This document shows, piece by piece, positions 9,322-40,582 of a stretch of DNA of 40,582 bases; position 1 is the first letter of the stretch; every line of letters begins with the position of its first letter. A program made the position numbers and the translations under genes. The notes under the pieces were generated by a model that was not told the DNA's origin, did not search any database, and saw nothing but the letters and a program-made list of their open reading frames with translations. The stretch comes from a candidate division WOR-3 bacterium (GTDB lineage Bacteria; Hydrothermota; Tepidihabitantia; B3-TA06): positions 60,453-101,034 of the forward strand of contig CBFGKC010000011.1 of the NCBI GenBank assembly GCA_965649265.1. Reading direction: 5' to 3'.

Positions 9322-10590
9322 ATGACAGCGTTAATGCTTTTAATCATCTCCCAGAGCGGAGGAGATACCGTTTACAATCTAAGGGATTTCAGGATTCCTG
9401 AGGACGGGATAACAAGCCTTACTTTTGCAGGAACGTTTAATCTGGCTAATTCGGTTCAATCCTACTACAGTACGGATACACTTTCGCCTGAAGCAAGAAG
9501 ATGGCAATCTTCATATGGTTACTCAAGGGTTTCATTGAAAAGGGACTTGAATATCAACGGTGAAACGAGATTTATACACCTGAGCATAATTCCGAGTTTG
9601 ACAGGCTCCTTAAATAGCTTCATTAGACAACTTGAGCCCGATTCCATTGTACGTTCAAGCTTGATCAGGAGTTCTATTGGTGGTAGCGCTTACTTTTACG
9701 GCGGCTGGTATTTAGCCGGGAGTTCCTGGTTTACAGGAGGAAAAGCCCGATTATCTGAGTACGGAGGAATAGAGTACTCCTGGCCTCAGGATACACTGCG
9801 TCCATATCTCACGCTACCGCGAGGCAAAGTCTTGGCAGGCGGCGGACTCGGCCGGGTTCGAAATGTGGCATCGGCGGCGCGAGCGTGGCTTTTTCTTGAA
9901 GAGAACGGTGCGGCTTCATACGATAATATTCAGCAACTGGCTGCATTTCTTTCAAGCGAGTGGAAATATAAAATCAAATACTGGCGTTACCAGAAATACT
10001 TTTATGCGGACGCCGACAGCGTTTTGGTTGAGGCCGGAGCGCTGAGCGAGTTGACGCCGTATCAACTCATGCGGTTAAGGGAAATAGTTGAGAATACGAG
10101 TCAATTCGAGAGACTTTCGGGGAACCGACTGAGTATTATGTCGGGCTTGAACTACAACGATTATGACAGGGATAGTGACCTGGAAGCGGAAATCGCGCTT
10201 TCGCTTATCGGTGGACAACCTGTATCGCGGCGATGGCAAGTATCATACTCGACAGAAAACGAAGTGTATCTTCCATTTTATTCACTCGTAGAAGGATACA
10301 GACCTGAAGCCAGTTCCGAGTCAATGATATCGCTGTCTTACTACATTAGTGATTCCTGGAGACTGTCGAGTGAGGTCGATGCGTTTATCCTTTTGAATTA
10401 TTTTACATACGGGTATGACTGCACGGTGTCATCCAGGTTAGTACCGGTGGAGTTGACAATGTACGTCGACAATCATCTCGATTTGTCAATAAAACCATAT
10501 TGCGAATACTATCTGGATGAGATCACAGACATCCAGATCCATGATTTTCATTTTGGTTTGGATGCCGGTCTCAACTGGAGACTGCGTTGA
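9322..10590 (+). CDS. Hypothetical exported protein, probable outer-membrane beta-barrel (paralog 2)
   Basis: 422 aa; AAGGAGG RBS; same three motifs as 7813..9306; C-terminal beta-signal-like FGLDAGLNWRLR. Confidence 0.7.
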   Translation: MTALMLLIISQSGGDTVYNLRDFRIPEDGITSLTFAGTFNLANSVQSYYSTDTLSPEARRWQSSYGYSRVSLKRDLNINGETRFIHLSIIPSLTGSLNSFIRQLEPDSIVRSSLIRSSIGGSAYFYGGWYLAGSSWFTGGKARLSEYGGIEYSWPQDTLRPYLTLPRGKVLAGGGLGRVRNVASAARAWLFLEENGAASYDNIQQLAAFLSSEWKYKIKYWRYQKYFYADADSVLVEAGALSELTPYQLMRLREIVENTSQFERLSGNRLSIMSGLNYNDYDRDSDLEAEIALSLIGGQPVSRRWQVSYSTENEVYLPFYSLVEGYRPEASSESMISLSYYISDSWRLSSEVDAFILLNYFTYGYDCTVSSRLVPVELTMYVDNHLDLSIKPYCEYYLDEITDIQIHDFHFGLDAGLNWRLR

Positions 10591-10614: not shown

Positions 10615-13065
10615 TCAGGGTGTCCAGTCCGCATTGAAGAAGCCGGCCTTGACGACTCCACCCCAGCCTTTGTCCCAGACGTCCGTTGACCAGATTATAT
10701 AATCGGGCAGACCTGCGCCGGAATATAGAGTCGAGAAGTAACCGGAGAGCCTGAGGCCTTCTGCCTCGATACCTTCACGAACCAGAATCTTTTTTGCAGG
10801 GTTCAGCGGGTTAGGGTAGATGAAGAGCGCCGCCCTGGCGTTTGCAGGAAGAATTTCGCCGTTAACAACAAATCGAGATCGGTTGATCTTTATCGGCAGA
10901 TCCTTTTCTACAGCTGCAACAATTTTGTTTTGCTCCGAGTTGCCGATGAGGATCAGGTTGTATCTTTCCATCATGGAAGAGGTGACTGAGGTGTCCGCAA
11001 CTACATAGGTGCAGCCGTTGGCAACAATCCACCAGCGCTGACTTTCGGACACTGCAATCCGCATGAGCTTTGACGTAGTCGCTGTATCCGACTTTGTTCC
11101 GTAGACGAGGATGAATGGTTGATAATAGGCGCTCTTTATGGGCGAGTGGGGAAGGGGGTAGTCTTGAGAATTAGCGACATGCCAGTCTCCGTCGCCTACT
11201 TCAAAAACCATGGAATCTTGCGAGAGTTCAGCGGTCAGCGTATCATCATTAACGGTAACCATGATTGTAGCGTAGCCGTGATTGTTTTCAGGAGTTTTTA
11301 TAGAAAACCTTCCGACGTTCGTAGTCGAAACATGATACCCGTAGTCGTCTATCCAGCCTTTTATAGTCGCATCCTTCATGGGGTCGCTTATCGTATGTAT
11401 GCGAAGCCAGTAAGCCCCTGACGCCTCGGCGATGTTGGCGGTTCCGAAGAATACTCGCTTGGGGTATTCGGGTCTTACGGATTTTTGCATGAATTGCATG
11501 ATGTCCGGCCAGTTTACGCATGCGCCGTTAGAATCGCCCCACCAGTGGGGCTTGTCAGGAACTTCCACGTACCGGTAGTCGTAACCGAGTTGATTGAGCC
11601 TGGATGCGTAAAGCCTTGCCTGAAAAGCCGGGACGTTGTCATCGGCTCCTCCCTGCAGGATGAACACGGGAAGGTTCGAGGCGTTCTCGATTCTTGCAAG
11701 CTGGTTGTCCGACCTTAAGGCCTGGTTGCGAACTTCAAGCTGCCAGGGTTCGGCGAAGATTGCCGATTTCTGCCATGTCCAGGCGGAATAGAGTTCATGG
11801 TTCGTCCAGCCCGCCTCGGGCGAAAGCGAGGCAAACAGGTCGGGATAGGTAAGCCCCACGTGCCACGTGCCGTGTCCGCCCATCGAATGGCCCGTAAGGT
11901 GCACCTTTCTCTCATCAATGGGATATCGTCTCATTACCTCTCCGAGAACTTCCAGGGCATCAAGCCTTCCCCAGTCCTGCCAGTCGAAACCGTATGGCCG
12001 GCGGTTGGTTGGACAGGCGACGAAGGCCCAGTCTTTCTGCGTATACGAATCCACCTGAGATAAGGCCTCCACGCTCGCGCCGTGAAGGGAAAGGATCAGC
12101 GGGTATTTCCTTGCGGGGTCGTAGTTCCCGGGCGGCATGAGACCGAAGTACTGAACCGAGCCGTCTATCTCCGAAACGAAGGTTTCCTTCCGCGACTGGT
12201 CAGGCCTGCGACATCTTATTTTGAGAGTCGTTTCTACCTTGTCCCTGTCCCAGATGACGGACACGGGAAGAATCAATGAATCGCCGGGTATCGAATCCAG
12301 CAGGGGTATAAGAAGCTTGAAATCGAAGGGTGCCTTGTAGAAGTTCATGGGCGCGATGGGGGGGAGGTCGAACGCCCTTTCCTTGAAACCTTTGCCGCCC
12401 ACCACGAGCTTCGCGTTGCGCAGCCATTCCTCGCCGGTGTTGCATACCGGTATCGCTCCGTAAAGGGTGCCGTTATCCGCACCGTACACAAGATCGGGCA
12501 AGGTCGCGTCTCTTTCGATAATTCTTACATCATCGTCCACTGGCACGAGCGTGAAGCTCACCCTGTCGTCGCCTGCGCCGCCCAGGTATAGCCAGATTCG
12601 GTTGCGTCCCTTGTCAAGGATGACAGGATTGGCAAGCGTCCCCGAGGCGTAAACGTCTCCCATGTAACTGCGTTCGTTTATGGAAAACGAGCAGCCCATT
12701 GCCAGAGCGAGCGCGCGCGACCGTTTGGGGACGTTCACTTCGGCGTACGCGTAGCCGGAATTGTAAAGCGCCGAGATGCCGTAGAAATCCTGGAGCGTGT
12801 CCCATCCCACGTTCGGATAGGAAGTCCTCAGCCAACCGGTGGAATCAACCTTCACTTTTTCCCATTTCTGCCAGCCGCCCGTTGTCTGTACGGAGAACAG
12901 GCTGTCACCCTCCTTTGGAGTGAAATTGGGGTCGTCGGGAAGAATTCTCCAAGTATTTTCCCTTACGCCGGTGAGAAAAGGCCCGCAAACGAGATACTCC
13001 TCGGGCATTATCGTATCCTGAATGGACGGTGACGAAACAAGCAACGACAAAATCAAAAACATCAC
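10615..13065 (-). CDS. Secreted S9/prolyl-oligopeptidase-like alpha/beta hydrolase with N-terminal beta-sandwich domains
   Basis: Signal-like N-terminus; LHGA oxyanion motif, GHSMGG nucleophile, GADDNVP Asp, KPHWW His; AAGGAGG RBS before GTG. Confidence 0.85.
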   Translation of the reverse strand: MMFLILSLLVSSPSIQDTIMPEEYLVCGPFLTGVRENTWRILPDDPNFTPKEGDSLFSVQTTGGWQKWEKVKVDSTGWLRTSYPNVGWDTLQDFYGISALYNSGYAYAEVNVPKRSRALALAMGCSFSINERSYMGDVYASGTLANPVILDKGRNRIWLYLGGAGDDRVSFTLVPVDDDVRIIERDATLPDLVYGADNGTLYGAIPVCNTGEEWLRNAKLVVGGKGFKERAFDLPPIAPMNFYKAPFDFKLLIPLLDSIPGDSLILPVSVIWDRDKVETTLKIRCRRPDQSRKETFVSEIDGSVQYFGLMPPGNYDPARKYPLILSLHGASVEALSQVDSYTQKDWAFVACPTNRRPYGFDWQDWGRLDALEVLGEVMRRYPIDERKVHLTGHSMGGHGTWHVGLTYPDLFASLSPEAGWTNHELYSAWTWQKSAIFAEPWQLEVRNQALRSDNQLARIENASNLPVFILQGGADDNVPAFQARLYASRLNQLGYDYRYVEVPDKPHWWGDSNGACVNWPDIMQFMQKSVRPEYPKRVFFGTANIAEASGAYWLRIHTISDPMKDATIKGWIDDYGYHVSTTNVGRFSIKTPENNHGYATIMVTVNDDTLTAELSQDSMVFEVGDGDWHVANSQDYPLPHSPIKSAYYQPFILVYGTKSDTATTSKLMRIAVSESQRWWIVANGCTYVVADTSVTSSMMERYNLILIGNSEQNKIVAAVEKDLPIKINRSRFVVNGEILPANARAALFIYPNPLNPAKKILVREGIEAEGLRLSGYFSTLYSGAGLPDYIIWSTDVWDKGWGGVVKAGFFNADWTP

Positions 13066-30926: not shown

Positions 30927-31430
30927 ATGCGTGAATCTGACGTAAGAATAGTCCGGCTTGAACCCATGCGTGTCGCTTGTGCAAAAGGATTCGGGACGAG
31001 CCCGGAAGCCGAAGCGTGGGGAAAAATTCTTTCGTGGGCGAAAGAAAAAGGATTGCTCGAAAAAAATAAAACCTATCGACTGTTCGGATTCAACAATCCG
31101 GAACCGACACCGGACAAACCGGAATACGGCTATGAGCAGTGGATTACCACTGAGAAAAATGCGGAACCGGGAGAAGACGTGCAAATCAAGGATTTCCCGG
31201 GCGGACAGTATGCGGTAGTTCGAACAAAGTTGAGCACTATCACCGAGTCATGGAAAAACCTGGTCGAATGGCTCCAGAAGAGCAAGTACGATTTCGGTCC
31301 ATATCAATACCTCGAGGAATGCCTTGGTGTTACGGGTGTTACGGGTGTTACGGGTGTTACGGGTTTTGAAGGGGGAGGACCCGATCTCGAAACCGAGTTC
31401 GACATCTACATGCCGATCAAGGAAAAATAG
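30927..31430 (+). CDS. GyrI-like small-molecule-binding domain protein
   Basis: VRIVRLEPMRVA, FGFNNP, YGYEQW, FPGGQYAV, W..LVEW, DIYMPI; AAGGAGGAG RBS; promoter TTGACA-N17-TAAGAT at 30869-30897. Confidence 0.88.
   Translation: MRESDVRIVRLEPMRVACAKGFGTSPEAEAWGKILSWAKEKGLLEKNKTYRLFGFNNPEPTPDKPEYGYEQWITTEKNAEPGEDVQIKDFPGGQYAVVRTKLSTITESWKNLVEWLQKSKYDFGPYQYLEECLGVTGVTGVTGVTGFEGGGPDLETEFDIYMPIKEK
31326..31361 (+). repeat. In-frame (GGTGTTACG)x4 tandem repeat encoding (GVT)4
   Basis: Four perfect 9-mers; same unit as element C. Confidence 0.95.
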
Positions 31431-32262: not shown

Positions 32263-33354
32263 TTGAAGATAGACTTTCTTCCTTCCGAATATCTAATCAA
32301 TGCTACCCGTGATGTTGGGGGAGGAATCGAGTCCGACTTTCTCTTGCGCGCACTCCGAATCAAGAATAACTCACGGACTCCAGCCGAGATCAGAAGCATT
32401 TCACTTGAAATAAAGACGGAAGAGATGCGTGTGAGAACTGTTTCTTATTCAGGAAGGATTCTTGCAATTCGAGCAAAGAGCCTGGTAAACACTGTAAAAA
32501 ATCTGGATGGACACGTAGCCCAGATGTTCCTGGGTACGAAGAAATTCTGGGACTGCGGGCTTCTCTCTTCGACTTCCAGGCTTGGACCGGATCAGGAATC
32601 GGGATTACTGCTTGAGTATTTCAGGATAACGGACAAAAAACATCCGATTACCGAATGCGCGATTACTGTTTCATACATCAAAGAAGGCGTTGAGAGGAAT
32701 GCACGAAGAACAATTCCGGTCACGCGGTACGAAAGCAAAAACGACTATATTTTCCCGCTCAAGGGAACCTGGTTCGTGTTGAACAACTACGACGATATTC
32801 ACATTCACCGCAAGATGCACTCGCAGGAATTTGGTATGGACCTTGTACAGTTGTCGGGTGAAATGAAAATAGCACCGACACCAAAAAGCAGCAACGAGGA
32901 ACACGCCTGCTACGGAAGAAAAATCTTTGCCATTGCCGATGGAGAGGTTGTGGACTCCTTCAATGATATCCCGGAGAATCCTCCCGGATTAGGATCACGG
33001 CTTCCAGATGAAGAATGGGAAGACATCAGGAAAAGATTCGGTTTTGTCCCGGGGATTGCGGGAAACTACGTAATATTAAAACACAAGGGAAACGAGTATT
33101 CCTTCTACGCTCACATGATTCCCGGTAGTGTGACCGCGAAAAGAGGGGAGAAGCTCAAACAAGGACAAGTTCTCGGTCGCTTAGGAAACTCAGGCAACTC
33201 CGACGCACCGCACCTTCATTTTCATTTGATGGCGGGACCGAACATACTTTCCGCACGAGGTCTTCCCTGTCGGTTTACCAATCTTACACACGCACTTGGA
33301 GATGAACCTTTGGGCTTCATAACGGAAACCAACTCGATAGTCAATGCCGAATAA
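32263..33354 (+). CDS. M23-family metallopeptidase with N-terminal beta domain
   Basis: H..QEFGMD, AIADGEVV, GNYVILKH, YAH, GRLGNSGNSDAPHLHFH. Start re-assigned to TTG 32263 after AAGGAG. Confidence 0.85.
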   Translation: MKIDFLPSEYLINATRDVGGGIESDFLLRALRIKNNSRTPAEIRSISLEIKTEEMRVRTVSYSGRILAIRAKSLVNTVKNLDGHVAQMFLGTKKFWDCGLLSSTSRLGPDQESGLLLEYFRITDKKHPITECAITVSYIKEGVERNARRTIPVTRYESKNDYIFPLKGTWFVLNNYDDIHIHRKMHSQEFGMDLVQLSGEMKIAPTPKSSNEEHACYGRKIFAIADGEVVDSFNDIPENPPGLGSRLPDEEWEDIRKRFGFVPGIAGNYVILKHKGNEYSFYAHMIPGSVTAKRGEKLKQGQVLGRLGNSGNSDAPHLHFHLMAGPNILSARGLPCRFTNLTHALGDEPLGFITETNSIVNAE

Positions 33355-34114
33355 CAACATCCCTTTAGCTCTCGCGCTCTCGGCGCTTGCCGGACTTGCG
33401 ACCACCGTTGGCAGCGTCATCGGGATATTCGTACGCAGACCGGGCCCCCGTTTCCTCTCCTTTACACTGGGTTTTTCGGCGGGCGTGATGATACTCGTTT
33501 CTTTCGTCGAGCTGCTTCCCAGGGGAATCAACAACCTCGGGATGTTCTGGGGACTTGCAGCTTTTTTTGCAGGAATGGGTCTTATGTTTCTGCTGGATGT
33601 TCTTCTGCCCCATTCTTACAAGGCAGAACAACCTGATGACCATGATAAGGATAAGTCAAGGCTCATGCGCACAGGACTCCTGGTTGCCTTCGGAATAGGC
33701 ATTCATAATCTTCCCGAAGGCCTGGCGGCGTTCGCGGGCACACTCCAGAATCTAAAGCTCGGGATATCGATCGCGATCGCCGTGGCCATTCACAATATCC
33801 CGGAAGGACTTGCGGTGTCGGCTCCCGTCTACGCGGCAACCGGTTCCAGGTCGAAGGCCTTCTGGTGGTCATTTCTTTCAGGCGTCGCCGAACCGGTCGG
33901 CGCATGCCTGGCGGCACTCGTGCTTCTGCCTTTCCTCAACGAAAAGGTCCTGGGTGCCGTTCTCTCGGGCGTTGCGGGGATCATGGTTTTCATCTCCGTC
34001 GACGAATTGGTTCCTGCCTCAAAAAGATATGGTTACGATCATCTTGCCATAATAGGGATGCTGTCAGGAATGATTATTATGGCTTTATCTCTGCTCCTGA
34101 TGCAAAAAAGCTGA
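33344..34114 (+). CDS. zupT: ZIP-family zinc transporter ZupT
   Basis: GFSAGVMILVSFVELL, HNLPEG, HNIPEG, SGVAEPVG, GIMVFISVDELVP. Confidence 0.93.
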   Translation: MPNNNIPLALALSALAGLATTVGSVIGIFVRRPGPRFLSFTLGFSAGVMILVSFVELLPRGINNLGMFWGLAAFFAGMGLMFLLDVLLPHSYKAEQPDDHDKDKSRLMRTGLLVAFGIGIHNLPEGLAAFAGTLQNLKLGISIAIAVAIHNIPEGLAVSAPVYAATGSRSKAFWWSFLSGVAEPVGACLAALVLLPFLNEKVLGAVLSGVAGIMVFISVDELVPASKRYGYDHLAIIGMLSGMIIMALSLLLMQKS

Positions 34115-34148
34115 ATAAACCGGATTACATAAATCGATGAATGGGGTC

Positions 34149-34176
34149 TTGACAAGACCGAGATAAAATATATACT
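34149..34176 (+). promoter_or_regulatory. Promoter TTGACA-N16-TATACT
   Basis: About 100 nt upstream of the Roadblock gene. Confidence 0.7.
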
Positions 34177-34283
34177 GACTCATAAAAGAGTACATTAGCA
34201 TATCCGTTATGTGTGAAGTGGGTCGAGCATAAAACAGCTAAATAAAAAGAAACTCTAAGGCTTATTCTCATAGGCGGTGTAAT

Positions 34284-34727
34284 ATGAGTTCAACGCTCGA
34301 GAATGTACATAAGGTTTTGAGGGAACTTATAGACGGTACGCCTGGTATTACATTAGGGATGTTATTGGACGAGGAGGGGCTCCCTCTTTATCTCTATCCC
34401 TCATCCGAAGTATCTGAAAATCAGATTGATAAAGCTGCAATTTCGGCCTTGAATCTCCTGAGTACGGCCGAGAAGACTTCCGTACAACTTGATTTGCAGG
34501 GACTCAAAGGTGTACTCGTAAGAACCGAAAATGGTTATGTCTACGGGATAAGGGTTCAAGGCCTAAGAAAAAGCACTTTTGTCGCAAGGACCGACCCCAA
34601 TATCGCTTTAGGCGCATTGTTTATGGCAGTCCACGAAACGTGCAACCGTCTTAACGTGATTCTGGCCGATCTGTCTTCTCCATCTAACCTGATTGAGGGT
34701 CTCACACTCGGAAAAGCATCGAGATAA
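34284..34727 (+). CDS. Roadblock/LC7 (MglB-like) protein
   Basis: LRELIDGTPGI..MLLDEEGLP, AAISALNLLSTAEK..QL, VLVRTENGYV, NIALGALF. Confidence 0.9.
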   Translation: MSSTLENVHKVLRELIDGTPGITLGMLLDEEGLPLYLYPSSEVSENQIDKAAISALNLLSTAEKTSVQLDLQGLKGVLVRTENGYVYGIRVQGLRKSTFVARTDPNIALGALFMAVHETCNRLNVILADLSSPSNLIEGLTLGKASR

Positions 34728-34879
34728 GAAGGAATACAGGAGATCTGTTGTCCATTTTTACAAGCATGGAATTACATCGTTTCGACAGCAAATATTATCG
34801 GTTCGACTCTTTTTCAAAAAAGAGTCAAAAAGACTTATCGCAATCAAACTGCACACAAATACCTAGGGCATATTGCTTA

Positions 34880-34907
34880 TTGACATCGCCTGTAGTAGCA
34901 CTATAGT
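34880..34907 (+). promoter_or_regulatory. Promoter TTGACA-N16-TATAGT for the signalling operon
   Basis: Followed by a leader of about 135 nt, then GAGGAG RBS and ATG 35047. Confidence 0.7.
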
Positions 34908-35046
34908 TAAACTAAGGAGATGGTTCTGAAACCGTCGAGTTCGAGTTAAGGATAAGTAAATAAGGTAAGGAGTTAAGTATTGATCAGGAGCGCCATCGGT
35001 TTTGTCTATAAACCGATTGGATCTAAAAAAGTTCTGAGGAGACGCA

Positions 35047-36210
35047 ATGGCTGAAAGGCCAAGGGTTCTGTTTGTCGATGATGAGGAAGCATTTGCCAAT
35101 ACAATGGCAACGTTTCTTTCGTCACACGGCTTTGAAGTTGAAACCGCCTTCGAAGCCAAAAATGCTATCGCACTTGCCGCTTCCAAGAACTATCAAATAA
35201 TTGTTACCGATATCAATATGCCGGGGATGGATGGTATAGAATTGATAAGAACGATAAGAGAAATAAGTCCCGATCAAAGGATCATCGTCTTTACCGGTTT
35301 CCCATCTCATGAATCGCAGGAGGAAGCGTATAAACTTGGTGTTTTGAATTACCTGGTTAAGCCTTTCTCTACTGAACGCTTCCTGGAGTTGCTCAATAAA
35401 GCACTGACCGTAAACGGTGAGGGTCTTTTCGGCCCAGTTGAACTCACGTTTGAGGATCTTATACAGGTTTACTCACAGCAATTGAAATCAATGGTTCTCG
35501 AGATTCAAAACGGCGAAGAAACCGGTCGTATTCATTTCAAAAATGGAAGGATAATACACGCCGAGACCAAAACCAATAAGGGCACCAGTGCATTTTATGA
35601 GATCCAATCGTGGAAAGTAGGGAGATTCAAAACCGAACCAAAAGTAGAGAATGTCACAGAAACCATAGACCTTAGCGTCGACGCGTTAATATTGGAGGGG
35701 GCGAGGCTTCAGGACGAGGAGTCCAAAGAAGCTCCTCCTCCTGTAACGAGCAAAACCCAGAAAAAAACAGAAAAAGTGGGAAAGGACGCAAATAACTCTC
35801 AAAGGAGGAGTTCTATGCCATCTATGATAGAAGAGATCAATTCCGCTCTAAAAGATTTGGCGGAAAACACCCCGGGATTAAGTCTTTCATTGTTGGTCGA
35901 CAATGAAGGCTTGCCCGTAGCGCGCTACTCTTCAATCCAAATCCCCGAAGGAACGGCAGAAAGAGTGGCTGTTGCGTCGTTGGCCATGCTGGGGTTGGCC
36001 CGCCGTAACACGGATCAACTCGGACTTCAAGGTTTCCAGGAAGTGCTTATTAAGGCCGACACCGGTTATGTTTATTCGGTATCGGTAGGTGGTCCTGCAG
36101 GCTACGTTCTTGTGGCCAGAACTGACCAGTCGATCACTCTCGGCGCACTCTTTATGACGGTTCGCACCGCACGCGAACGGATAAACAAAGCTATGGGTAT
36201 AACCCTTTAA
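35047..36210 (+). CDS. Response regulator: REC + DUF4388 (PATAN-like) + C-terminal Roadblock/LC7
   Basis: VDDE, TDINMPGMDG, FTG, VKPF (intact REC). FEDLIQ..GRIHFKNGRIIHA..G..AFYEI..W..GRF..ALILEGARLQDE (DUF4388). From M257, a Roadblock paralogous to 34284..34727. Confidence 0.9.
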   Translation: MAERPRVLFVDDEEAFANTMATFLSSHGFEVETAFEAKNAIALAASKNYQIIVTDINMPGMDGIELIRTIREISPDQRIIVFTGFPSHESQEEAYKLGVLNYLVKPFSTERFLELLNKALTVNGEGLFGPVELTFEDLIQVYSQQLKSMVLEIQNGEETGRIHFKNGRIIHAETKTNKGTSAFYEIQSWKVGRFKTEPKVENVTETIDLSVDALILEGARLQDEESKEAPPPVTSKTQKKTEKVGKDANNSQRRSSMPSMIEEINSALKDLAENTPGLSLSLLVDNEGLPVARYSSIQIPEGTAERVAVASLAMLGLARRNTDQLGLQGFQEVLIKADTGYVYSVSVGGPAGYVLVARTDQSITLGALFMTVRTARERINKAMGITL

Positions 36211-36226
36211 CCCCAAGGAGGTCTAG

Positions 36227-36718
36227 ATGAGTTCAGCGTTAGATCCCTTGACCGATCTTCTTGCCAATTCTCTGTTTGACGGTGCATACAGGGCGACAGG
36301 CTATATTCTCGGACCACAGCAGCTAAAGGCTTTTGTCCGTTCGTTTGCCGAAGTAGCCGTAGAGCACATAGTCAATAAAACTGGGAAATCCATGACCGGT
36401 AAGGACGCTCCCTCGGCAGCTCTTAACTGGGCGACAATAGAAACCGAAATAGGCCTGTATAAACAGGGTCACACCGAAGTTACTCCGTCAAGCGAAGGTT
36501 TTGAAGTAACCTATTCCGACTGTAATTTTGCCGAAGCATGCGGTACGGTACTGGCAGATCTCATTTCTCAAGGAGTAATGGACAGGGAAGACCTGCCGTG
36601 CATGCGTTGCAGTCTTACCTCGGCTGCTGTACAAAAGGCAACCCGAACGAAGTCCAAGTATAAGATGATACAGCATGCCCCTGGTTTCCGCTGTCGCTGC
36701 AGCGTTAATACGCTTTAA
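36227..36718 (+). CDS. Cys-rich V4R-like / methanogen output domain 1 (MetOD1)-like protein
   Basis: AAGGAGG RBS; EVTYSDCNFAEAC, LPCMRC, CRC pattern typical of V4R-related folds. Confidence 0.65.
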   Translation: MSSALDPLTDLLANSLFDGAYRATGYILGPQQLKAFVRSFAEVAVEHIVNKTGKSMTGKDAPSAALNWATIETEIGLYKQGHTEVTPSSEGFEVTYSDCNFAEACGTVLADLISQGVMDREDLPCMRCSLTSAAVQKATRTKSKYKMIQHAPGFRCRCSVNTL

Positions 36719-36737
36719 AAAAATTAAGGAGAAACCA

Positions 36738-37316
36738 ATGGCCCAGCATAATTCTATAATAGTTGAGTCTTATCTGAAGACCTTTACTATTGATGCCGAG
36801 CATTCCCGTATAAGGGTAGGCAATCACGAAGTTGCTTTTCACTGCGACAAATTCAACACGCGCATCATAAAAGGCTTCGAAGACGTTATCGGGATCGAGG
36901 ATTCAGCAAAGCTTCTGGTCGCTTCGGCTGAAAAGACAATCCTCCAGATGTTTAATGATTTCTTTAAGGATGATGTTAAAACTCAGTTCGATTCCCTCTC
37001 ACCCGAAGACAAATTTGCGACCCTTATCGAGATGGGTAAGCTTCTTGGTTACGGAGCAATAGACCCGGCAACTCCAACCGACAAAGGCGGGACGTTTATT
37101 TCTCCCTCTTCGTATCTTGCCGAGGGATGGCTGGAGAACGAAACCCGCTGGAACTGGAAACAGCGCAGCACCCCTGTGTGCTACGACATGTGCGGCTTTA
37201 TTGCCGGAGCGCTGGCTTTTATCTACGGAAAACCCATCGGAACTTACAAGGTGACTGAAACCACCTGTCGCGCAAAGGGCGATTCCGTATGCACCTTCAA
37301 AGCGGAGGTCAAATAA
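36738..37316 (+). CDS. V4R (4-vinyl reductase) domain protein 1
   Basis: FHC..FN, LLGYG, PVCYDMCGFIAGA, VTETTCRAKGDSVCTF. Start re-assigned to ATG 36738 after AAGGAG. Confidence 0.88.
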   Translation: MAQHNSIIVESYLKTFTIDAEHSRIRVGNHEVAFHCDKFNTRIIKGFEDVIGIEDSAKLLVASAEKTILQMFNDFFKDDVKTQFDSLSPEDKFATLIEMGKLLGYGAIDPATPTDKGGTFISPSSYLAEGWLENETRWNWKQRSTPVCYDMCGFIAGALAFIYGKPIGTYKVTETTCRAKGDSVCTFKAEVK

Positions 37317-37317
37317 C

Positions 37318-37929
37318 ATGCCAATCAATGCAGACAAAATCAGAGAAGCCGTTGCCGGATTAGGACTGGTCGGCGATTCAAAGACCGGGATTCTAAGGCG
37401 CTTCGGGGTTATCCTTGCAAACAACTCCGTCGATTTTCTGGTTGGAAGAGAAATAGACCTTATTGACTTTCTCGGCCCCAAGGCCCTCAATCTCGCCGAA
37501 AAGGTTCTTATCGATGCGGCCCAGTGGTGTGCCAACGCCACTTTCGCAGGCATAATGGCGTCGGAAGAATGGAAGGGCCTCATAGAGCCCGAGATAAAAA
37601 CAGTAAACGACAGATTTGCAGGTCTTGTCGCGATAACCAACTGCCTCGGATGGGGCAAGATTACTGAATTCAAGCTCGACGAGGCCGCTCAAACCGTTGA
37701 TTTCACTGTTGATCATTCATACTATGTGGACGCCTGGAAGAAGCGCTTCGGTAAATCTGAAAGACCAATATGCTATATGTGGACCGGTGTCGCAGGCGGC
37801 TACGCGGATTTGCTCTTCAAGGGTGAAGTCCACACTCACCTCGGTATCGAAACGGAATGCGCCGCGGTCAAAGGCAACGTATGCAGATTCAAGGGCGAAC
37901 CGCATTCCAAGAAGTATGACCTTCGATAA
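37318..37929 (+). CDS. V4R domain protein 2
   Basis: LGWG, RPICYMWTGVAGGY, IETECAAVKGNVCRF. Confidence 0.88.
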   Translation: MPINADKIREAVAGLGLVGDSKTGILRRFGVILANNSVDFLVGREIDLIDFLGPKALNLAEKVLIDAAQWCANATFAGIMASEEWKGLIEPEIKTVNDRFAGLVAITNCLGWGKITEFKLDEAAQTVDFTVDHSYYVDAWKKRFGKSERPICYMWTGVAGGYADLLFKGEVHTHLGIETECAAVKGNVCRFKGEPHSKKYDLR

Positions 37930-37941
37930 AGGTGAAATATT

Positions 37942-39135
37942 TTGGATGAAACCAGGCTGCGCGCCCAGTTTCCGGCCCTTTCTAACAACGCAAGGATTTA
38001 TCTGGATAATGCAGCGACCTCGCTTACACCTCAATGCGTGATAAGTGAGGTCGCTCGATATCCAGAGACTTACGGCGTCAACGCGGGGAGGGGGGCTTAT
38101 CAGCTTTCAGCGGAACTGGCAAGAGAGATAGAGTCCGCAAGACAATATATTGCATCATTCGTCGGGGTTGAACCTGATGAAATTGCTTTCACGGCAAACA
38201 CGACTGATGCAATAAACAAGCTGGCTCTGGCTCTTGACTTGCAACCGGAAGATCGAATTGTCATAACCGGCCTCGAGCACCATTCCAACATTCTGCCATG
38301 GAGAGTAGAAGAGAGAAAAAACGGTACAAGGGTTCAAGTATTGCCATTAACAGGTGATGCCGCAATTGACTTCGATGCAGCTGTCAACACGTTGAAAGGA
38401 GCCAGGCTTTTTGCTTTCACGGCCGCTTCAAACGTACTGGGTACGCTTGAGCCAGTTGAGAAATTAACATCCCTGGCAAGGGACAATGGATCGCTCTCTT
38501 TCATTGACGCCGCTCAGCTAGTCGGCCATAAAAAAGTAGACTTCAAAAAGATCGGATGCGATTTTGCGGCATTTTCGGCTCACAAAATCTGCGGTCCTAC
38601 CGGGGTCGGAGTACTTTACGTAAAGAAAGGTGCGGAAAAATTTCTCGACCCCGTCGTCTTGGGGGGAGGTACTGTTAAGGATGTAACCGATTCATCCTAC
38701 ACTTTGCAGGACTTTCCTTCTTCTTTTGAACCCGGAACTATGAATATTTCTGGAATTCTGGGTTTTGCCGAGGCATTAAGATTTCTTAACTCCATTGGGA
38801 TTGAAAACATTGAAAGCAAAATCTCAATGCTGCATAAGAAACTTCTTGACGGGCTTCTTTCGAGACAAGAGGTTGAAATCTACGGGTTAAAGGGAAGTGA
38901 AAATGTGGGCATTGTCTCATTCAACATCAAAGGTTTCACATCTCATCAAGCGGCTTGCCTGTACGATCAAATTGGCGGGATATTACTTCGTTCAGGATAT
39001 CACTGCGCAATACCTCTGGTAAAAACCCTGGGAGACGGTACCGGAACAATAAGGGCATCGATTGCCTTCTACAACAACGAACTGGAGATAGACCGTTTCC
39101 TTGAGGTAACTGACGAAATAATCAAAGGAAAATGA
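37942..39135 (+). CDS. sufS: Group II (SufS-type) cysteine desulfurase, aminotransferase class V
   Basis: YLDNAATS, EHHSN..PW, SNVLG, DAAQ, SAHKICGPTG (PLP Lys), FEPGT, RSGYHCA catalytic Cys, RAS..YN; TTG start. Confidence 0.85.
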   Translation: MDETRLRAQFPALSNNARIYLDNAATSLTPQCVISEVARYPETYGVNAGRGAYQLSAELAREIESARQYIASFVGVEPDEIAFTANTTDAINKLALALDLQPEDRIVITGLEHHSNILPWRVEERKNGTRVQVLPLTGDAAIDFDAAVNTLKGARLFAFTAASNVLGTLEPVEKLTSLARDNGSLSFIDAAQLVGHKKVDFKKIGCDFAAFSAHKICGPTGVGVLYVKKGAEKFLDPVVLGGGTVKDVTDSSYTLQDFPSSFEPGTMNISGILGFAEALRFLNSIGIENIESKISMLHKKLLDGLLSRQEVEIYGLKGSENVGIVSFNIKGFTSHQAACLYDQIGGILLRSGYHCAIPLVKTLGDGTGTIRASIAFYNNELEIDRFLEVTDEIIKGK

Positions 39136-39449
39136 AGCAAATAATTACGATCGCCCGACACGAAGTTCAATACTATAGCACAAATCTTTGTAGTCACGGA
39201 GATGTTGGAGACTACGAGCTTTTTCCCGCCGAAAAGTTGGAAATTAATATAAAGGAGATAGTTGAAAGATATCGTGATAGGACTACTATCAGATGGAGCA
39301 GTCTTGCGGCACAGTTTTCATTAAAAGATGTAAAAGTGTCGCTCTATGCTGAAGGAAGGGTAATTCTTGAAGGGATAAAACCTGACAGTCACGAGGAAGC
39401 TTTCCGGTTTCTTAAAGAGATTCTCTCCGGGAAAACCATTCCGGCTTAG
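39132..39449 (+). CDS. Small protein resembling the C-terminal (TBP-like fold) domain of long MoeB/ThiF proteins
   Basis: ATGA overlap with the desulfurase; LC..YELFP..LEINI..VKVSLYAEGRVILEG..EEA pattern. Confidence 0.6.
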   Translation: MKQIITIARHEVQYYSTNLCSHGDVGDYELFPAEKLEINIKEIVERYRDRTTIRWSSLAAQFSLKDVKVSLYAEGRVILEGIKPDSHEEAFRFLKEILSGKTIPA

Positions 39450-39539
39450 ATACTACAACCTACTGAATAAAGTAGGGAACAATCCTTATTGACCACTGCA
39501 TTTTTTTTATCATGATTAGACGTAACAGGAGGATGAACT

Positions 39540-39797
39540 ATGAGTACTCTTAAAACCATTGATCGGAGAAGAGGCCGACGAAAGAATCAAAAGCTCAACG
39601 ATTTTCTCGTCGAGCTTTATGAGGATGTAATGCCGTCTGTTGTTGATAGAGGCACAAGTCACAAAAAAGTCCGGAAAACGAAAAACCATGGCGCAGGCGA
39701 TCCCGCCGGTTTTGACTGGGGACATTTTTTCCCTCCCAATGCCTCAGGAAATACTCTTGTCAAGATCATAAAAAGCAAGGCATTATTTTTGGAGTAA
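39540..39797 (+). CDS. Small basic hypothetical protein
   Basis: AGGAGG RBS; candidate promoter TTGACC-N16-CATGAT at 39489-39516; 85 aa, Arg/Lys-rich. Confidence 0.5.
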   Translation: MSTLKTIDRRRGRRKNQKLNDFLVELYEDVMPSVVDRGTSHKKVRKTKNHGAGDPAGFDWGHFFPPNASGNTLVKIIKSKALFLE

Positions 39798-39908
39798 CGG
39801 TACACACTTAACAGCTGTCCGTATTAGACCCCTATTTTCTCATAACAAAATCACAGACGTCATTTATCTTTCCGATTTGCTACTTCGCCTCTGAACCGAT
39901 ATTTAATA

Positions 39909-39936
39909 TTGACACCTACACTCCGTCAATTATAAT
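39909..39936 (+). promoter_or_regulatory. Consensus promoter TTGACA-N16-TATAAT
   Basis: Perfect hexamers; overlapped by the inverted repeat ATTGAC-N11-GTCAAT. Confidence 0.8.
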
Positions 39937-40054
39937 GAATCCACAATAGGTAGGCTTTAATACAAGGAGAAAGTATTTGGATGAATAAAAGAGGGCTATT
40001 TATTTTAATCCTTGCTGGATATTGTTTGCTTTCATCGGCAACAAAGGGCGACTA

Positions 40055-40582
40055 GTGCTGGAAAGATTAAAAATACTTCTCGTTGATGATGAAGCAGACT
40101 TCGTGGAAACCATATCAATGCTTCTCATCTCCCAGGGGTACGAGGTAGAAACCGCACTTACAGGTGAGCAGGCTTTATCGTTAATAAACTCCGGCAATTT
40201 TCACCTTCTGGTCGCAGATATAAACATGCCTAAAATGGATGGAATAGAATTAATACGAAAGGTAAAGGGCATCCAACCGGATATTCGCACGATAATAGTT
40301 ACCGGCTTCCCCTCAAATGAGATTCAAGCTGAGGCGCTCGCTCTCCACGTCAACAATATGCTTATCAAACCTTTTTCTACCGAAAGATTTCTTGAGATCA
40401 TCAACAATACGTTTCATAAAAACGAAATAGAGAACAGAACAGGATTAATTGGGCCGGTTGAACTTACGTGTCAGGATTTGATTCAAATGTACGCGGTGGA
40501 TGGCAGATCATTAACATTGGAGATACGACATTTAGATGATGTAGGGCGTATATACTTCAATAAAGGAAAAGTCATCAATTCT
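40055..40582 (+). CDS. Second REC + DUF4388 response regulator, truncated by window end (absent from ORF track)
   Basis: Hand translation from GTG 40055: LKILLVDDEADF..ADINMPKMDGIELIR..VTGFPS..KPFSTERFLE..GPVELTCQDLIQ..GRIYFNKGKV; clear paralog of 35047..36210. Confidence 0.9.
   Translation, partial: MLERLKILLVDDEADFVETISMLLISQGYEVETALTGEQALSLINSGNFHLLVADINMPKMDGIELIRKVKGIQPDIRTIIVTGFPSNEIQAEALALHVNNMLIKPFSTERFLEIINNTFHKNEIENRTGLIGPVELTCQDLIQMYAVDGRSLTLEIRHLDDVGRIYFNKGKVINS

Follow-up and report, generated by a model that had tools for sequence, protein, structure and literature searches.

What brings a cysteine desulfurase, three proteins of the V4R/Bet3 fold and a set of Roadblock and response-regulator proteins together in one bacterial gene array? 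The question is raised by the 3' end of a 40,582-nt stretch of DNA from a candidate division WOR-3 bacterium, which is called the window here in its full length and which lies on the contig named C11 below. The last 6.3 kb of the window consist of eight plus-strand open reading frames (ORFs), which encode in order a stand-alone Roadblock protein (Robl1), a response regulator (RR1), a 163-aa protein (g163), two V4R proteins (V4R-A and V4R-B), the desulfurase, a 105-aa protein (g105) and the 5' part of a second response regulator (RR2). All eight are found at the positions given beforehand in a preliminary description, which had singled out six genes from 35047 to 39449 with gaps of less than 20 nt, bracketed by a paralogous Roadblock protein and a paralogous regulator. 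Taking 36738 as the start of V4R-A, the gaps among the six central genes measure 16, 19, 1, 12 and -4 nt; Robl1 shares 40% identity with residues 251-380 of RR1, and between RR2 and RR1 the identity is 50% over 174 aa, so that this outline holds. As set out below, the module is real, conserved and rare; its parts belong to known families, and their combination and logic are new.

The answer begins with the comparison of loci. A genome scan with V4R-A as the query (one genome per species) yielded 7 loci from 45 pattern matches, and a metagenome scan with an alignment of V4R-B yielded 26 loci from 83 pattern matches; together with the congeneric genome G100, 34 related loci were available (numbered with L where they are named below). 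Neighbours were counted by tblastn and profile searches of the six frames, and only loci with room for the respective gene were counted. By this measure, g163 is located upstream of V4R-A in 25/25 loci (at least 500 nt available there), a SufS-like gene comes after V4R-B in 28/28 loci that reach more than 400 nt past V4R-B (directly in 24), and g105 comes after the desulfurase in 20/20 loci, the form in L023 being 88 aa long and detectable only with the profile (E 2e-11). In L007, L018, L023 and L038 the genes for V4R-B and the desulfurase are separated by a Roadblock gene, and in L029, too, V4R-B has a Roadblock gene immediately behind it. The constant unit is thus g163, V4R-A, V4R-B, desulfurase and g105, and we are confident that these five genes form one functional unit. 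The preliminary description had asked whether its gene set is co-conserved elsewhere or has the desulfurase as a chance neighbour: the set recurs in the 34 related loci, and the desulfurase is no chance neighbour because it comes after V4R-B in every locus with room. Its larger unit stands in part, since the V4R pair and the desulfurase are constant, but the Roadblock/REC set is not always kept and is missing altogether in 3 of 17 well-flanked groups of loci.

Regarding its distribution, the seven genome loci are labelled Deltaproteobacteria, Solibacteraceae, candidate division Hyd24-12 and Myxococcota, and the phylum of the window is a fifth lineage; in all, the related loci represent five or more lineages at phylum level. 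Within that phylum, a search with V4R-B found the cassette only in the window's genome and in the congener, i.e., in 2 of 272 genomes. Because it is so scarce in this phylum and yet carried by other lineages, the cassette is patchy and was probably transferred horizontally. Several loci depart from the common form. In L007 (103-2395) the V4R-A/V4R-B pair occurs twice in tandem; a Roadblock gene and the desulfurase come next, and roughly 1 kb of other sequence separates the latter from g105. In L032, V4R-A (9442-9998) and the desulfurase (10624-11812) each match as two pieces in different frames, indicating a frameshift or an assembly error, and in the short locus L029 (1.5 kb) no match to V4R-A was found in the 733 nt upstream of V4R-B.

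The desulfurase (37942-39135, plus strand, 397 aa) matches the Aminotran_5 family PF00266 over residues 19-386 (5e-108, 361.8 bits). Its best solved relative is the cysteine desulfurase 5b7s (6.9e-87), and its pyridoxal phosphate (PLP) lysine in SAHK (K215) and its catalytic-cysteine loop RSGYHCA (C355) align with SGHK and RSGHHCA of that enzyme; among 19 sequences, K215 never varies and at least 90% have C355. Judged by these matches and motifs, the cassette enzyme is a SufS/CsdA-type (class II) cysteine desulfurase. Its score with the SufS model TIGR01979 (366.5 bits) is below the curated cut-off of 475.1, and it therefore represents a divergent branch, not a canonical SufS. In the window's genome (96% complete), SufB/SufD (PF01458) gave 0 matches and no SufBCD was found. 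The same genome has three other class V enzymes, of which the one on contig C21 adjoins the only NifU_N gene of the genome, and because of this separate desulfurase-NifU pair we regard the cassette desulfurase as an extra, dedicated enzyme. A housekeeping SUF function was considered for it and rejected, given the lack of SufB/SufD, the pair on C21 and the presence of the cassette in only 2 of the 272 genomes of the phylum.

Like SufS-SufE, SufS-SufU and CsdA-CsdE, the cassette combines a class II PLP enzyme with a small one-cysteine partner encoded directly downstream. This partner is g105 (39132-39449, plus strand), the start of which overlaps the stop codon of the desulfurase by 4 nt. For SufE/SufU partners a SufE or IscU fold is expected, but g105 has a TBP-like fold, shows no SufE/IscU-type family match and indeed matches no family in Pfam or NCBIfam; unlike the SUF and CSD systems, moreover, the cassette stands in a genome without detected SufBCD, has an enzyme below the TIGR01979 cut-off and appears to have V4R-fold proteins as its clients. 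With the AlphaFold2 model of g105 (predicted local distance difference test, pLDDT, 93.4), Foldseek returned nothing at E <= 0.001; its weaker matches, at E 0.02-0.1, were all TBP core domains. When 48,161 chains were compared with VIA-align, TBPs came first at Z 10.8, 9.6, 8.7 and 8.4, after which the values fall to 6.2, and the superposition with an archaeal TBP (Z 10.8) has a root-mean-square deviation of 2.3 A over 90 residues. A comparison of the g105 profile with solved structures gave nothing below E 0.07. The one invariant cysteine, C20 in the motif LCxxGxxGD, is present in 18/18 sequences, the invariant positions being L19, C20, G26, D27, P32, G75, R76, P84 and A90.

The g105 family is rare: among 1.84 billion cluster representatives its profile matches 112 proteins with E values of up to 0.001, of which 36 are at or below 1e-10, and the best 29 matches retain the LC...GD motif. 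Three of the profile matches are ThiF-family proteins, namely P0048 (330 aa, 1.3e-6), P0089 (338 aa, 2.4e-4) and P0103 (290 aa, 7.3e-4). The match covers the last 80 residues of each, behind the ThiF domain, and these tails retain the cysteine (TLCG, AYLCG) and the GR motif. Profile comparison thus identifies g105 as a homologue of the domain at the C-terminus of long ThiF/MoeB-type E1-like adenylyltransferases, from which it differs in being free-standing and paired with a desulfurase, not an adenylating domain. We know of no described function for this C-terminal domain. In other E1-like enzymes (MoeZ/MOCS3), the C-terminal add-on is a rhodanese domain that bears the persulfide, and by analogy it is plausible that the cysteine-bearing ThiF C-terminal domain is a sulfur-relay domain. 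Because of the homology to the ThiF tail, the 4-nt overlap and the constant co-occurrence with the desulfurase, we read g105 as the acceptor of this enzyme, that is, as a candidate persulfide acceptor or carrier. The predicted complex of desulfurase and g105 scored 0.29, with the mark at 0.32. DNA binding, at which the TBP fold hints, was set aside for g105 in view of its net charge of about -1 and the fact that the same domain terminates ThiF-type enzymes. Besides these, the proteins P0035, P0037 and P0046-P0060 (80-100 aa) are distant relatives with a cysteine close to the N-terminus in an LC or VLC motif, and together with g105 they may form a wider family of one-cysteine TBP-fold proteins. 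In a protein atlas, g105 lies nearest to small archaeal proteins without known function.

The remaining three genes of the unit encode proteins of one fold. g163 (36227-36718, plus strand) has no match in Pfam or NCBIfam, and its AlphaFold2 model (pLDDT 91.7, from an alignment of 20 sequences) shows the V4R/Bet3/H-NOX fold. The best Foldseek match is the Thorarchaeota TRAPPC3 structure 7yh3 (7.5e-4), followed by mouse and human Bet3, H-NOX and the phenol-sensor domains of PoxR/MopR, with probability 1.00 and TM scores of 0.5-0.6; the matches to the Bet3-family fold are 7yh3, 1wc8, 1sz7 and 2j3w. Because H-NOX and PoxR stand in the same list, the Bet3-family fold of g163 is no proof of membership in TRAPP. 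V4R-A (36738-37316, plus strand, 192 aa from the ATG at 36738; a longer ORF opens at 36675) reaches 37.4 bits with the Pfam V4R model, against a cut-off of 31, and V4R-B (37318-37929, plus strand, 203 aa) reaches 27.8 bits, which is under this cut-off. Fold and profile matches support all three as V4R-fold proteins, as had been proposed from the sequence.

The metal-type site C..ExxC..C that the preliminary description had seen in both V4R proteins is kept throughout: C148/E174/C177/C185 of V4R-A is invariant in 21/21 sequences, and C152/E178/C181/C189 of V4R-B is invariant in 27/27. Outside this site, H35-C36 of V4R-A and C71 of V4R-B are also invariant. g163 has four invariant cysteines (C99, C105, C125 and C156), which probably form a structural zinc site. 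V4R-B is the most constrained gene, with a mean pairwise identity of 0.57, compared with 0.39 for the desulfurase and 0.30 for g105. Its profile matches the MopR sensor at 2.2e-7, aligned with MopR residues 131-196 and spanning the region of the metal site, and in sequence both V4R-A and V4R-B resemble the ligand sensors MopR/PoxR more closely than Bet3. Like the sensors MopR, PoxR and DmpR (XylR_N plus V4R), they are about 200 aa long, with V4R as the C-terminal part and an aligned Cys/Glu/Cys/Cys site. Unlike these sensors, they stand alone without an AAA+ or DNA-binding output, form a fixed pair with a Bet3-like third protein and have extra invariant cysteines.

What surrounds the unit gives its possible connection to signalling. 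To count neighbours, loci with V4R-B at least 90% identical were merged, resulting in 25 groups with the window included. Roadblock, PATAN (DUF4388), REC or MglA-type genes occur inside the core or at most 6 kb away from it in 17 of the 25 groups, and in 14 of the 17 groups with a flank of at least 1.3 kb on one side. For comparison, about 15 ORFs for PATAN and about 10 for Roadblock proteins were counted over the 2.74 Mb of the window's genome, and from the latter number the chance of a Roadblock gene within 6 kb of a given locus can be roughly estimated at 4%. A PATAN-Roadblock protein, with or without REC, stands directly before g163 in the window, L013, L014, L016/L021, L020, L022 and L037; upstream in L022 there are also genes for two histidine kinases and two REC proteins. 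The groups of L006 and L008 have a pair of Roadblock genes at this position, together with genes for a PATAN protein and a DnaA-like AAA+ ATPase, to which a fourth V4R protein is sometimes added. The DnaA-type protein itself (430-470 aa) follows the PATAN gene directly upstream of the cassette, e.g., in L006 (5383-6783), with homologues in L008, L009, L030, L031 and L033. Where the core is linked to Roadblock/PATAN proteins, it probably works with them.

The GTPase for which the preliminary description had suggested a search (of MglA or Rab type) exists, but only partly where it was hoped for. An MglA-type GTPase gene is near the core in 6 of the 25 groups (L006, the L008 group, the L016 group, L022, L032 and L037), and these GTPases carry GxxxxGKT and LYT[VI]PGQ, the latter containing the TxxGQ signature. 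The threonine that replaces the usual aspartate in this signature is a mark of MglA (PMC3000849). In the window's own genome (G000), however, the only clear MglA-type GTPase lies with an MglB-like Roadblock gene not on C11 but on contig C4 (59489-60565, equal to L040:5489-6565), where the pair directly follows pyruvate:ferredoxin oxidoreductase genes on the same strand. Other neighbours vary. In three groups (L006/L033, L009, L031 and L032; e.g., L031:7038-10226), the cassette and its Roadblock-MglA pair are followed, a few genes farther downstream, by genes for the small and large subunits of [NiFe]-hydrogenase and a ferredoxin-like gene. In L004, L005 and L035 (e.g., L005:4388-7206, minus strand), the cassette is divergent from a Fur-family regulator gene, with a peroxiredoxin gene in all three and a catalase gene in L004 and L005; these surroundings hint at a link to oxidative stress.

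In the window, the adaptors are Robl1 (34284-34727, plus strand, 147 aa; Roadblock/LC7 PF03259, 28.3 bits against a cut-off of 23), RR1 (35047-36210, plus strand, 387 aa; REC 93.4, DUF4388 (PATAN) 68.8 and Roadblock 36.9 bits) and RR2 (40022-40582, plus strand; REC 88.8 bits and the beginning of DUF4388, with an open 3' end). Consistent with the intact phospho-site described for the REC domains, D11, D12, D55, T83 and K105 can all be read in the translation of RR1, and RR2 has the same acidic-pocket and phospho-acceptor motifs. RR2 is cut by the end of contig C11, which is also the 3' end of the window. The first 7 bases of the reverse complement of contig C14 are the last 7 of C11, and the RR2 frame continues there for 204 residues. 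Because G100 carries the array and C14-like DNA on one contig, we take the join of C11 and C14 to be real. The break also explains the PATAN scores of RR2, where the fragment in the window reaches 24.9 bits and its continuation on C14 22.5 bits, both just below the cut-off of 25 because the domain is split, compared with the 68.8 bits of RR1. For the last 120 residues of RR2, hhalign gives a match to the Roadblock domains of this set at 88% probability (E 3e-6), and RR2, as assembled from its two parts, is by these matches a full REC-PATAN protein with a Roadblock-like C-terminal domain.

G100 retains the complete eight-gene array with protein identities of 48-89% to the window, specifically 75% for Robl1, 72% for RR1, 77% for g163, 77% for V4R-A, 89% for V4R-B, 57% for the desulfurase, 48% for g105 and about 48% for the N-terminal part of RR2. 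Downstream of RR2, C14 encodes a 163-aa protein without a family and then ORFs of LigA, methyltransferase, thioredoxin and IMPDH size (named from their translations without a family search); no kinase or GTPase gene was found downstream of RR2 on C14. The earlier statement that neither a kinase nor a GTPase is encoded in the window can be extended for the kinase to the whole of contig C11, on which HATPase_c has no match, all 17 matches of the genome being on other contigs; for the GTPase it agrees with the location of the only clear MglA-type gene on C4. Several further REC-PATAN paralogues of this genome lie close to histidine kinase genes, whereas RR1 and RR2 have none on their contig.

Combining these results, we propose that the cassette encodes a V4R sensor complex that is loaded by a sulfur relay and acts through Roadblock/PATAN adaptors on an MglA-type switch. 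The SufS-type enzyme, the active-site residues of which are present, would draw sulfur from L-cysteine, bind it as a persulfide at the catalytic cysteine and pass it to the single invariant cysteine of g105. From there, sulfur would be delivered to a hetero-oligomer of g163, V4R-A and V4R-B and set the state of the sensor, with the end point being a persulfide on C36 of V4R-A or C71 of V4R-B, or part of a bound cofactor. Going by the gene order across lineages, the V4R complex may then contact the Roadblock domains of RR1, Robl1 and RR2, and these adaptors may act on the MglA/MglB switch through Roadblock and on cellular targets through PATAN. Phosphorylation of REC by an unlinked kinase would be a second input in this genus. 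The module would be a conserved accessory sensory module gained by horizontal transfer. The complete chain is a tentative proposal, to which we give slightly less than an even chance of being right.

Several observations weigh against this proposal. By analogy with PoxR and Thor-TRAPPC3, structural zinc is the most likely occupant of the Cys/Glu/Cys/Cys and Cys4 sites, so the target of the sulfur is a guess; in Thor-TRAPPC3, zinc is bound by four cysteines, and PoxR binds zinc with a site of its own (PMC10933270). In many lineages the PATAN-Roadblock partner has no REC domain, and phosphorylation gating is therefore lineage-specific. The "phosphorylation-gated" complex of the preliminary description thus fits this genus, where REC is present, but not the many lineages without it, in one clade of which a DnaA-like ATPase is found at that place. 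Three well-flanked groups, namely L004/L005/L035, L027 (among purine genes) and L010, have no signalling neighbour, which means that the core can stand alone. MglA occurs in 167 of the 272 genomes of the phylum and the cassette in 2, so the switch does not need the cassette, and the latter looks like an accessory input added to an older MglA switch. All five other carrier genomes (5/5) have 2-3 MglA-type genes, but because MglA is also present in those 167 genomes, this co-occurrence says little. Furthermore, no PilB/PilT-type (T2SSE-family) ATPase was found in the window's genome (96% complete), so that the usual target of PATAN and MglA is not evident there. Following this search, a type IV pilus output is not claimed.

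The same facts can be arranged differently. The five-gene core could be a machine for sulfur trafficking or cofactor assembly and not a sensor, in which the desulfurase and g105 build or repair an Fe-S or other sulfur centre on the V4R scaffold or store sulfane sulfur in the hydrophobic pockets of V4R; in either case the Roadblock/PATAN/REC proteins would do no more than regulate the core or be regulated by it. This is the main rival, but we consider it rather unlikely. The three groups without signalling genes, one of them divergent from Fur-family, catalase and peroxiredoxin genes, fit such a machine, as do the [NiFe]-hydrogenase and ferredoxin-like genes near three groups and the fact that every V4R-fold protein has at least four invariant Cys/His/Glu positions. 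It is also general knowledge that a dedicated desulfurase is typical of assembly systems (NifS, SufS, CsdA). However, according to Pfam and NCBIfam the core comes without a scaffold-type ATPase, an iron donor, a radical-SAM enzyme or an adenylating enzyme, the metal sites resemble the structural zinc sites of PoxR/MopR and Thor-TRAPPC3, and the commonest neighbours are signal-transduction proteins in many arrangements, including Roadblock genes inside the core. That the genes are unrelated neighbours, with a housekeeping Fe-S desulfurase next to a PATAN network by chance, is very improbable. With about 15 PATAN and 10 Roadblock ORFs in the genome some adjacency is expected, and SufB/SufD were not found, but this explanation is contradicted by the conserved gene order of the core, which is kept in every related locus with room and in several phyla; the separate desulfurase-NifU pair on C21 and the absence of the cassette from 270 of the 272 phylum genomes speak against it as well.

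A third possibility is that the V4R trio and the Roadblock proteins form a TRAPP-like complex that promotes nucleotide exchange on MglA or modulates its GTPase-activating protein (GAP), with the desulfurase and g105 serving as a redox or sulfur gate. The comparison has some appeal. TRAPP consists of Bet3-family and longin-type subunits and acts on Rab. In the cassette, the best structural matches of g163 are Asgard TRAPPC3 and Bet3, three paralogous Bet3/V4R-fold proteins always occur together, and Roadblock and MglA-type GTPase genes are linked to them in 6 groups; MglB has been assigned to the profilin-longin-like superfamily (bioRxiv 10.64898/2026.10.19.760177). As in the TRAPP core and Asgard TRAPPC3 (PMC10933270), the fold and the four-cysteine site of g163 are accompanied by several Bet3-fold paralogues, with Roadblock proteins and a small GTPase nearby. 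The differences are that the host is a bacterium, the GTPase is of the MglA type and not Rab, and a relation at the sequence level is not seen. Moreover, V4R-A and V4R-B are nearer to the MopR/PoxR sensors than to Bet3, Pfam and NCBIfam results contain no TRAPP family, the fold is common to H-NOX and other ligand binders, Asgard TRAPP/V4R proteins have been judged to be ligand binders (PMC10933270), and neither this genome nor most of the groups have the GTPase gene linked to the cassette. We therefore find a TRAPP-like complex improbable. Its most specific form, a bacterial TRAPP-like regulator of MglA (a guanine nucleotide exchange factor or a modulator of the MglB GAP) that would be switched by persulfidation of buried V4R cysteines via the desulfurase and a TBP-fold carrier, is likewise a long way from probable. 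We retain, tentatively, the sulfur-loaded V4R sensor complex acting through Roadblock/PATAN adaptors.

Among the closest known systems, the MglA/MglB(/MglC, RomR-RomX) polarity switch of Myxococcus xanthus shares with the present loci Roadblock regulators, a REC regulator and an MglA-type GTPase with TxxGQ. PATAN genes are occasionally found near mglA or mglB, and PATAN-linked MglA proteins belong to groups 1 and 5 (Wuichet and Sogaard-Andersen 2015, PMC4316618, citing Makarova 2006). Unlike in that system, the GTPase gene is here on another contig, the search of the genome for a type IV pilus ATPase gave no match, and the constant part is the V4R trio with desulfurase and g105, of which PMC4316618 makes no mention (the term "V4R" does not occur in it). 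The conservons of Streptomyces (CvnA-D) combine a Roadblock protein, an MglA-family GTPase and a histidine kinase in one conserved locus (PMC4316618). They resemble the cassette loci in their Roadblock and MglA-type genes, but no CvnC/DUF742-type gene was seen here and no kinase is in the window, and as described in that paper the conservons are without V4R or desulfurase genes. Structures of Asgard Roadblock, small-GTPase and TRAPPC3 proteins have been determined, and in the archaeon MK-D1 operons do not, as a rule, combine the genes of small GTPases with those of Roadblock, longin or TRAPPC3 proteins (PMC10933270), whereas GTPase genes are linked with such partners in 6 groups here. In the open-access literature and bioRxiv, supplements excluded, no paper was found that joins V4R with a cysteine desulfurase, and none of the papers listed for V4R together with Roadblock/PATAN, MglA/MglB/DUF4388/SufS or persulfide describes this gene set.

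Some further features of the region should be mentioned. Its three best sigma-70-like matches fall in the three larger gaps, 5' of Robl1, RR1 and RR2, all on the plus strand: TTGACA-16-TATACT (11/12) at 34149..34176 before Robl1, a second 11/12 match at 34880..34907 before the six-gene run and the perfect consensus TTGACA-16-TATAAT at 39909..39936 before RR2. These putative promoters are consensus matches only. An Rfam scan found no families in 33000-40582. A gene of the ZIP family of zinc transporters (PF02535; 33344-34114) is located directly upstream of Robl1, and it has the same place in G100; its position next to three V4R-fold proteins with zinc-type sites may or may not be a coincidence. 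Farther upstream, a perfect 9-nt tandem repeat, GGTGTTACG, occurs in 4.3 copies at 31326-31364 within the ORF 30927-31430 and translates to GVTGVTGVTGVTG.

What does the cassette mean for the families it brings together? Stand-alone V4R proteins are widespread and without a clear function (PMC3791482), V4R is related to Bet3, and Bet3 is thought to be derived from the V4R fold (PMC2253512). For such proteins the cassette offers a testable setting, in which a fixed trio has its own sulfur-mobilising enzyme and is repeatedly wired to Roadblock, PATAN and MglA genes. For class II cysteine desulfurases, we propose a new type of partner, a one-cysteine domain of the TBP fold, which also hints at a function for the C-terminal domain of the ThiF/MoeB-type enzymes. 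If the TRAPP-like explanation were true, the cassette would be the first operon-level functional link of the Bet3 fold, the Roadblock/longin fold and a Ras-like GTPase outside eukaryotes, and enzymatic persulfide transfer would be newly used as a signalling step. As it stands, the gene linkage points to a way of feeding a sulfur-dependent signal into a polarity-type switch, and if the sulfur relay sets the GTPase switch, anaerobes would have a route from cysteine, sulfur or redox status to a spatial or behavioural decision.

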